Positions 56,536 to 57,728 of a stretch of DNA of 64,000 nt are shown here, in pieces. The notes beneath the pieces were generated by a model. The model searched no databases. It worked only from the letters and a program-made list of their open reading frames with translations, and was not told the DNA's origin. Position numbers and translations under genes: made by a program. This DNA comes from Escherichia coli (GTDB lineage Bacteria > Pseudomonadota > Gammaproteobacteria > Enterobacterales > Enterobacteriaceae): assembly GCF_036507355.1 (NCBI RefSeq), contig NZ_AP027877.1; one strand, given 5' to 3'. How positions within the stretch are numbered: position 1 is the first letter of the stretch; the number at the start of each line of letters is the position of its first letter.

Positions 56536-57003
56536 TTAGTTAGAGGTAATTATCTTATCAACCTCTGCAAGAGATAAAGCTGTCACCTCTGCAACGTCTT
56601 CCCGAGACATCCCTTTACTCAGAAGACGCTGGGCCAGTCTTACCTTCTGGAGTCCCTCTTTATATCCCTTCTGAAATCCCTTCTGAAATCCCTTCTCTTC
56701 AAACCACTGCGCCAACGTCTGCCTGGTTTCTCTCCGTGTCTTTATTTCCATATGTTCCCTTAATTATCTGGTCAGTTAACAATAACAATTATCTGGCTAA
56801 AACTGATAATGCAGATAACTTAGTTAATCAGCCTATCAATCTCAGCAAGAGGTAAATTTGCCATCTCTGCAACGTCTTCCCGAGGCATTCCTTTACTTAG
56901 AAGACGCAGGGCGAATTCCTGACTTACTTCCTGTCTTCCCTGCTGAATCCCCTTCTCAATTCCTTTCTCAATCCCTTTCTCTTCAAACCACTGCGCCAGC
57001 GTC
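56523..57003. repeat. Diverged tandem direct repeat (two ~197-bp units, period 284 bp) covering the rpnC 3' end and the downstream small ORF
   Basis: Unit B 56523..56719 and unit A 56807..57003 align at about 75-80% identity, including ~15 bp beyond each stop codon. Confidence 0.6.
56536..56751 (-). CDS. Free-standing RpnS-like small protein (homologue of the RpnC C-terminal tail domain)
   Basis: 71-aa ORF MEIKTRRETRQTLAQWFEEKGFQKGFQKGYKEGLQKVRLAQRLLSKGMSREDVAEVTALSLAEVDKIITSN aligns with rpnC tail MTLAQWFEEKGIEKGIEKGIQQGRQEVSQEFALRLLSKGMPREDVAEMANLPLAEIDRLIN; AAGGGAA upstream of ATG; DNA is a diverged direct repeat of the rpnC 3' end. Confidence 0.6.
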   Translation of the reverse strand: MEIKTRRETRQTLAQWFEEKGFQKGFQKGYKEGLQKVRLAQRLLSKGMSREDVAEVTALSLAEVDKIITSN

Positions 57004-57728
57004 ATCATAGACTTCCCTCCCGTTTCCCTGTCTCTCAGCACACCATAAAACAAATCCGCTTGTTCAGTATGACCGCGTTGCAGCATATAGTTTTGCATGG
57101 CAACTAACTGACTTCCGCTAGTGTACCCTTCGTCAATCAGCGTGACCAGTTGCTCCAGCAATAACATTAAGTCGCGCTGGCGAATATGTTTTTGCAGTAG
57201 TTCGAGAATCGCAATCCGCCGATGTTGCATGATTTCGTCATCCGGTGTGATGGTGATATCCACCAGCGGGAAAGGACTGTTATAGACGCGTCGCGCCAGC
57301 TCCGGAGAGTAAAACATATCAAACCAGCACATTGAGAGCGGATAAGGTGTGGCCTCGCCCTGATAAAAGAGAATCGGCACTACCAGCGGTAGTTTGTCGT
57401 GATCCGCCTCCAGATGCCGATGCATGGCGGCTATAGAATAACGCATCATGCGAAAGGCCATTTTCTTATCCGGCTTGCTTTGGTGTTCAATCACAACATG
57501 CAGATAACCGGGATTGCCCTGCATTTGCACGGAATAGAGCACGTCCGTGCTGTGTCCTTTTAGGCTCTCTTCAATGAAACTCCCCGACTCTAAATGAAGC
57601 GTGTTGAGGTCACAAAGTTCGCGTAATTCCACTGGCAAATGTATCTCCAGAAAGTCGCGAGCCGTCTCCGCATGCATTAAAAATTGTTTAAATACCGCGT
57701 CATGCGGTGTAGTACTCGGTGCATCCAT
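56820..57728 (-). CDS. rpnC: Rpn family recombination-promoting nuclease (YhgA-like, PD-(D/E)XK) RpnC
   Basis: 302-aa ORF MDAPSTTPHDAVFKQFLMHAETARDFLEIHLP... (HDAVFKQF signature of YhgA-like proteins); in-frame internal ATGATG at 57008..57003 preceded by GGGAGGG suggests separate translation of the C-terminal tail. Confidence 0.9.
   Translation of the reverse strand: MDAPSTTPHDAVFKQFLMHAETARDFLEIHLPVELRELCDLNTLHLESGSFIEESLKGHSTDVLYSVQMQGNPGYLHVVIEHQSKPDKKMAFRMMRYSIAAMHRHLEADHDKLPLVVPILFYQGEATPYPLSMCWFDMFYSPELARRVYNSPFPLVDITITPDDEIMQHRRIAILELLQKHIRQRDLMLLLEQLVTLIDEGYTSGSQLVAMQNYMLQRGHTEQADLFYGVLRDRETGGKSMMTLAQWFEEKGIEKGIEKGIQQGRQEVSQEFALRLLSKGMPREDVAEMANLPLAEIDRLIN

Follow-up and report, generated by a model that had tools for sequence, protein, structure and literature searches.

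In a 64,000-nucleotide stretch of Escherichia coli DNA, called the window here, a toxin gene and a small open reading frame (ORF) lie on the minus strand between panC (55407-56258, plus strand) and panD (58002-58382, plus strand). Read along the minus strand the order is panD, rpnC, a 68-nt spacer, a 71-codon ORF and, across an intergenic gap of 277 nt, the end of panC, with panD on the other side of rpnC from panC. The toxin gene rpnC (yadD; 56820-57728, minus strand) encodes the full-length PD-(D/E)XK nuclease toxin RpnC(L) of 302 aa, as assigned from its ORF, Pfam and TIGR01784. Residues 7-207 match Pfam PF04754 (Transposase_31) with an E value of 3e-87 over model positions 1-201 of 203, the TIGR01784 score of the full-length protein is 292 bits, and the gene thereby combines the full-length PF04754 domain of an Rpn (YhgA-like) toxin with a variable tail that has an internal Shine-Dalgarno sequence and start. 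The protein is 97% identical to K-12 RpnC, the first 239 residues being the same except for E239K, and differs from it essentially by one extra KGIE repeat in the tail. The nested rpnCS frame of 62 aa (56820-57008, minus strand) begins at an internal ATGATG (57008-57003) set 6 nt from a GGGAGGG Shine-Dalgarno sequence (57021-57015), an arrangement that aligns identically in K-12, and the frame matches TIGR01784 profile positions 218-272 with 52.7 bits. K-12 RpnCS has been seen by SPA tagging, with a ribosome-profiling signal at the internal start (PMC10400941). A preliminary description of this DNA had given the rpnC coordinates, a tail of ~62 aa, the ATGATG and the GGGAGGG, all of which were borne out when the sequence was checked.

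The 71-codon ORF (56536-56751, minus strand) is a free-standing RpnS-like gene, rpnCSs, assigned from homology of its product to the RpnC tail, from RefSeq and from PMC10400941. In keeping with the definition of an RpnSs gene it is an ORF of its own, placed 68 nt downstream of the rpnC stop on the same strand, and its arrangement relative to rpnC is alike in 34 of 34 other carrier loci. The spacer from the rpnC stop to its start (56752-56819, minus strand) holds an AAGGGAA site (56761-56755) with 3 nt (CAT) between it and the ATG. By BLASTP the 71-aa product is 57% identical to RpnC residues 235-301 (67 residues, E 4e-22), a sequence likeness far above chance, and from residue 20 it carries KGFQ-KGFQ-KGYK-EGLQ, the hypervariable four-residue repeats of the family. 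A repeat search delimits two direct repeats of ~198 nt at 76-90% identity, each reaching 14 nt beyond the stop of its gene: the upstream unit (56806-57003) covers the rpnC tail and the downstream unit (56522-56719), also recovered by alignment, the rpnCSs body. Their spacing of 278/284 nt implies one 6-nt indel, and the duplication period of 284 nt is the sum of the ORF (216 nt) and the spacer (68 nt). The proposal that the ORF arose by tandem duplication of the rpnC tail, with two direct-repeat units of ~197 bp, therefore holds, with its coordinates and AAGGGAA site right. As to origin, the sequence shows that a tandem duplication of ~284 nt took the rpnC tail together with ~20 nt of 3' flank. 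The ATGATG start is gone from the downstream copy, where MEIKTRRETRQ forms a new head behind an AAGGGAA site of its own, and the two copies have diverged since then while still swapping sequence by recombination.

In K-12 MG1655 the panC and rpnC stops lie exactly 73 bp apart and the small ORF is absent, just as the preliminary description had stated for the yadD-panC gap (~73 bp). Its further claim that ~0.5 kb here is missing from K-12 stands as to the absence (488 bp extra), although not all of that DNA is duplication, 196 nt of it being an enterobacterial repetitive intergenic consensus (ERIC) element. The 488 bp are made up of the 284-nt rpnCSs unit, the 196-nt ERIC element and 8 nt of net small indels. 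The ERIC element (56260-56455) directly follows the panC stop, accounts for 40% of the DNA missing from K-12 and is a clean insertion relative to both K-12 and L003, a locus that carries the small ORF alone. It has a terminal inverted repeat (56262-56287 and 56436-56461), an Rfam search over it gave nothing but a sub-threshold V_AS5 match, and it stands outside the rpn system. The primers ERIC2 and ERIC1R, widely used in the literature, match it exactly at 56397-56418 and with 2 mismatches at 56375-56396, respectively. Between the element and the rpnCSs stop remain 80 nt of ancestral panC-rpnC spacer (56456-56535), which align to the entire K-12 and L003 intergenic regions and contain a GC-rich, terminator-like hairpin (56463-56485) on the plus strand. 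Four layouts are seen, namely neither insertion (K-12, L001), ERIC alone (L002), the small ORF alone (L003-L006) and both (the window, L007-L013).

Prior description, distribution and coding status of rpnCSs

The gene is already known, having been described and named rpnCSs in 2023 by Zhong et al. (PNAS 120:e2307382120; PMC10400941, section 'Varied Expression of Small Proteins', Fig. 2I), who derive RpnCSs from RpnC by phylogeny and note that the free copy can disappear through deletion or when the N-terminal domain becomes fused to it. A commentary (PMC10400984) restates the point about free copies, and within the literature collection searched no later paper on RpnCSs was found. The preliminary reading of the ORF as a free-standing RpnS-like gene agrees with this account, while the novelty that it implied fails, the gene, its origin and its strain-variable presence all being in the 2023 paper, and rpnCSs itself adds nothing new to the Rpn toxin-antitoxin and anti-phage story.

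At a coverage of at least 80%, 1,555 of the 5,426 complete E. coli genomes (29%) contain a 191-nt junction query that runs across the rpnC stop and the spacer into the start of rpnCSs, the gene being absent from ~70%; the best match is Nissle 1917 (99%). The exact 71-aa protein of the window is encoded on at least 23 public contigs, flanked there by the same genes and separated from panC by the same 277 nt. The layout panC, small ORF, rpnC and panD recurs in L003-L006 and L029-L037, and Escherichia marmotae and further Escherichia species likewise have free-standing relatives. RefSeq labels the ORF variously as 'RpnC/YadD family protein' (e.g. WP_000404130.1), 'hypothetical protein' or 'transposase', and PGAP marks some copies as partial pseudogenes ('incomplete', missing N-terminus) although the ORFs are intact. 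The flagged ORFs share the MEIKTRRET head, which indicates that the partial flags are artefacts of alignment to full-length RpnC. The value of the present case for annotation is that many records miscall an intact rpnCSs as a transposase, a hypothetical protein or a partial pseudogene.

Across the 38 loci examined the ORF is intact from ATG to stop in 36 of 36 carriers, which represent 14 distinct DNA alleles with a synonymous divergence of ~7%, and all length changes among the alleles are in frame. Over 46 non-repeat codons pN/pS is 0.69, a value that implies weak purifying selection and is not decisive on coding constraint. The 68-nt spacer has 4 variants that differ by 1-4 substitutions in 32 loci of diverse strains, and with its AAGGGAAC(A/C)TATG it is almost invariant, whereas the repeats in both copies vary freely. 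Both initiation regions are less stable than shuffled controls (z +1.3 for rpnCSs and +1.5 for the other). A consensus scan of the minus strand over 56200-58050 gave no promoter-like site, and a scan between rpnC and the 71-codon ORF gave no terminator-like site, which makes co-transcription with rpnC/rpnCS at least as likely as separate transcription. For the suggestion that the ORF could be 'independently expressed', the sequence offers a Shine-Dalgarno sequence of its own and an unstructured start region as signals, and no promoter of its own was found by the scan. We infer from these sequence features that rpnCSs would be translated from its own ribosome binding site (RBS), most likely on rpnC/rpnCS transcripts.

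Family membership and predicted fold

The 71-aa product matches TIGR01784 positions 213-273 of 273, the last 60, with an E value of 7e-11 and 42.4 bits, which falls below the whole-protein cut-off of 52.1 as expected of a fragment. A Pfam-A scan gave no significant family and only weak HTH_7 and HTH_3 matches; near-identical proteins bear a PF27070 (HTH_Rpn_C) match that is found in precomputed matches alone, so the scanned Pfam library is probably older than PF27070. A profile of 59 homologues matches the RpnA(S) crystal structure 7TH0 (E 5e-8), whereas a single-sequence PDB search with the 71-aa product missed RpnAS and returned a designed repeat protein as its sole match. The AF2 model has helices at residues 13-45, 50-57 and 61-70 with a mean pLDDT of 78 (>87 over residues 31-70), places the repeats in helix 13-45 and agrees with the published description of RpnAS. 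Foldseek of the model against the PDB gave HTH neighbours alone, every one with an E value above 1, and PADLOC, which has no Rpn model, gave merely weak unrelated matches to the RpnC tail. The model thus predicts for the rpnCSs product the RpnS fold, a compact three-helix unit in which a long first helix would hold the hypervariable repeats and an HTH-like short pair would follow. Related sequences are numerous, with 186 cluster representatives at E <= 1e-3 among 1.84 billion, many of them of 60-110 aa and of the same build; among the 147 listed matches that were additional to those of the first search, 62 have at most 90 aa. This abundance of free small relatives agrees with the separate DUF4351 genes remarked on in PMC10400941.

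Repeat length, exchange between the copies and possible roles

RpnS proteins block the toxic nuclease RpnL, and the first helix common to both RpnL and RpnS carries the hypervariable four-residue repeats (PMC10400941). RpnCS neutralises RpnC only at equal repeat number, one extra KGIE being enough to abolish it (Fig. 4D, PMC10400941). Taking the variable segment as the residues between WFEE and RLLSKGM, the RpnC tail of the window has 24 residues (KGIE KGIE KGIQ QGRQ EVSQ EFAL) and the free copy 22 (KGFQ KGFQ KGYK EGLQ KVRLAQ), so that the two differ in sequence and do not show the equal repeat number of the published cognate pair. Free alleles have segments of 8-28 residues that fall into two series, 4n and 4n+2. 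Among the 34 loci with both copies the lengths are unequal in 15 of the 16 distinct tail/free combinations, with differences of 2-20 residues, and the sole equal pair, 28/28 in L022 and L024, has unrelated repeat sequences. That pair rules out a stricter rule under which free and tail lengths never match. The tail next to one and the same free allele may have 24, 28 or 32 residues, a pattern repeated for further free alleles.

By homology rpnCSs would bind Rpn C-terminal domains via helix 1, as RpnS proteins do. The resident rpnC already gives rise to a matched RpnCS through its internal start (57008). The published repeat-number rule and the length mismatch together argue against a simple cognate second antitoxin; if the rule generalises, RpnCSs should usually fail to neutralise the adjoining RpnC, bearing in mind that the rule rests on one engineered pair and may not predict the effect of 2-residue or repeat-sequence differences. 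Under repeat matching, a free helix that does not co-vary with the tail raises the question of what rpnCSs binds. The RpnC of the window is the natural counterpart of the '+REPEAT' construct of the 2023 paper, which K-12 RpnCS could no longer counteract, and because this RpnC is naturally the 'K-12 + one KGIE' form engineered there, the strain would be a ready-made natural test system.

The two copies have exchanged sequence. Compared from the codons preceding RLLSKGM to the stop, the tails and the free copies of complete genomes have no fixed differences that set one class apart from the other, and the diagnostic tail/free sites are confined to the 3' flanks. L002 no longer has a free copy, and its one tail ends in ~20 codons (…MTNLSLAEIDKLINSN) and a 3' flank of the free type; in L006, L032 and L034 the free copy has a tail-type C-terminal end (…MANLPLAEIDKMIN). 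The end of K-12 rpnC, with two extra codons and a flank of the free type, fits a single-copy ancestral state as well as the outcome of a deletion. Alleles in which the tail head runs into the KGFQ block (P0017, P0029, P0031, P0032; L038-L040) were set aside as evidence of switching, coming from short-read contigs that start at the repeat, as was the allele P0045 with the free head and KGIE, which comes from short-read or low-coverage contigs. The junction of tail head and KGFQ is split in each of the 12 best complete-genome matches listed, the two pieces lying ~450 nt apart, and for this reason the tail-head KGFQ alleles may be assembly collapses.

Given a resident toxin with its own matched RpnCS and a free helix whose length does not track the tail, the free copy is, on sequence grounds, less likely to be a redundant antitoxin acting on that toxin than a specificity cassette that is non-cognate or kept as a spare. 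The opposing reading is that RpnCSs neutralises the resident RpnC(L) as a cognate second antitoxin, an extra dose uncoupled from toxin translation. Its homology to the proven antitoxin RpnCS and its position directly downstream of rpnC on the same strand, without a terminator between, would suit such a role, as would the suggestion that decoupling toxin from antitoxin may add regulatory flexibility (PMC10400984), and the mismatch in the window is merely 2 residues while one lineage is equal. Yet a single added four-residue repeat abolishes RpnCS neutralisation of RpnC (Fig. 4D, PMC10400941), repeat sequence and length (22 vs 24) both set the free copy apart from the resident tail, mismatches of 2-20 residues extend to all but one of the 16 combinations, and the tail repeat number shifts while the free allele stays constant. 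Weighing these comparisons we regard a cognate role as plausible but somewhat disfavoured, and on balance doubtful. Slightly better placed, and still only a tentative proposal, is a switch of specificity in which unequal crossover or gene conversion from the stored free tail replaces the rpnC tail together with the nested rpnCS and would thereby change the specificity of toxin and antitoxin in a single step. Hybrid alleles in complete genomes (L002; L006, L032, L034), the loss of every diagnostic tail/free difference from the compared coding part with only the flank still distinguishing the copies, and the loss by fusion of N-terminal domain and rpnSs noted in PMC10400941 are what such a switch would leave behind. 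However, the tail-head KGFQ alleles come from short-read contigs alone (L038-L040) and are possible assembly collapses, and tandem repeats recombine anyway, so that a selected function does not follow from exchange.

Two further readings fare less well. The ORF could be a decaying remnant, a functionless and neutral by-product of repeat instability, in line with its absence from ~70% of complete genomes, the pN/pS of 0.69 and the PGAP tags of 'incomplete' or 'transposase' on some copies; we consider this unlikely, since all 36 carrier loci, with 14 DNA alleles, keep the ORF whole with its ATG and Shine-Dalgarno sequence even at ~7% synonymous divergence, indels are in frame, free copies also occur in E. 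marmotae and other Escherichia species, and the analogous RpnESs is synthesised (PMC10400941). That the HTH-like C-terminal half makes it a DNA-binding regulator repressing the rpnC/rpnCS promoters seems very improbable. Every structural neighbour of the model is a DNA-binding domain of the HTH type (resolvase, IstA and TrpR among them), Pfam gives the weak HTH_7 and HTH_3 matches and HHpred relatedness to HTH motifs is reported in PMC10400941, but all the fold matches have E values above 1, RpnAS works by protein-protein binding to RpnAL in vitro (PMC10400941) and an operator-like repeat was not found.

We consider it highly probable that the ORF is rpnCSs, a duplicate of the rpnC tail with a predicted RpnS-type product, its own RBS, a probable shared transcript and, more likely than a redundant role, the character of a non-cognate or spare cassette. 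Within that reading, a possible but less secure extension is that the free copy is an independently evolving cassette, kept either for recombination into rpnC or for orphan immunity against non-resident RpnC variants, and no backup antitoxin for its neighbour, so that its helix would have no need to equal the resident toxin's in length. If this were true, recombination of the free copy into rpnC would switch toxin and antitoxin specificity jointly.

Comparison with other RpnS genes

The copy in the window shares with the published rpnCSs its locus between rpnC and panC, its strand, its origin from the rpnC tail and its variability in four-residue repeats. There is no essential difference between them; the window allele, which shares 94% identity with P0004, the most frequent 71-aa form, ends in ...AEVDKIITSN and adjoins the ERIC element. 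The closest parallel in K-12 is ypaA (rpnESs), likewise a free second RpnS cassette directly downstream of its rpn gene, rpnE. Synthesis of RpnESs (YpaA) was shown by SPA tagging and RpnCSs is not among the proteins so shown (PMC10400941); by phylogeny rpnESs arose independently, out of rpnE and not rpnC (PMC10400941), and, unlike rpnCSs, it is present in K-12.

Free-standing small PF27070/DUF4351 proteins elsewhere have the same architecture, and those that we read carry (K/E)G-type tetrapeptides followed by LLxKGMSxEDVAExTxLS; in other bacteria they are mostly 30-50% identical to the rpnCSs product. The intragenic RpnCS and RpnAS (7TH0) are built on the same domain as rpnCSs, a long tetrapeptide helix followed by two short helices. 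Because their translation begins within the toxin gene they are bound to vary along with its tail, whereas rpnCSs is a separate ORF whose helix length does not co-vary with the tail that it adjoins.

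Sequence elements between panC and rpnC

Directly 3' of the panC stop the window carries a 196-nt insertion (56260-56455), an ERIC element with terminal inverted repeats, an exact match to the ERIC2 primer site and a match to the ERIC1R site with two mismatches. In comparison with both K-12 and a locus that carries rpnCSs (L003) the element is a clean insertion, and the same element is found without rpnCSs in strain 2014C-3061. A search of Rfam matched the Vibrio family V_AS5 over this element at 30 bits, which is below the gathering score of 96. Elsewhere in the window a weaker match to the ERIC1R primer (three mismatches) lies at 13679-13700 and may mark another ERIC-like element.

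The ancestral panC-rpnC spacer contains a GC-rich perfect hairpin, TGGCGCTACGGCTGATGGCGCCA (56463-56485), that is kept in K-12 and in all strains compared. The hairpin is flanked by two convergent transcription units and has a T-rich tail on its plus-strand side only; it may terminate both units.

Annotation and surroundings of rpnCSs

The naming of the rpnCSs protein family varies between RefSeq records and includes 'RpnC/YadD family protein', 'hypothetical protein' and 'transposase'. In the records of three comparison loci (L004, L005 and L035) PGAP either calls intact rpnCSs ORFs 'transposase' or treats them as pseudogenes with the remark 'incomplete; missing N-terminus'. Two short AGATAATT-type copies, given as window positions 56761-56774 and 56547-56560, are recorded for the spacer upstream of rpnCSs and read …GCCAGATAATTG… and …ACCAGATAATTA…, similar to …GATAAGATAATTA…, the coding sequence for DKII at the C-terminus of the rpnC tail. 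Both copies may be remnants of former junctions or of past recombination.

The rpnC tail and its interruption in other contigs

In two sister contigs that share the rpnCSs allele of the window (L007 and L011) there is an apparent break in the rpnC frame that lies 26 codons ahead of the LAQWFEE motif and precedes the internal start by ~80 nt, and in L011 the gene is annotated in two pieces of 234 aa and 62 aa. As read, the nuclease domain is severed from the tail in both contigs with rpnCS and rpnCSs each left intact. An apparent 1-nt deletion within a GGGAGGGG run has the same consequence for rpnC in a short-read contig (L038). These interruptions may be genuine or may stem from errors in sequencing.

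In the window the RpnC tail (56820-57008) corresponds to that of K-12 with one additional KGIE repeat, and further differs from it by four substitutions and in the last few codons. A '+REPEAT' rpnC allele was engineered by Zhong et al. (PMC10400941) for a test of specificity, and the tail allele of the window is the natural counterpart of this engineered allele.
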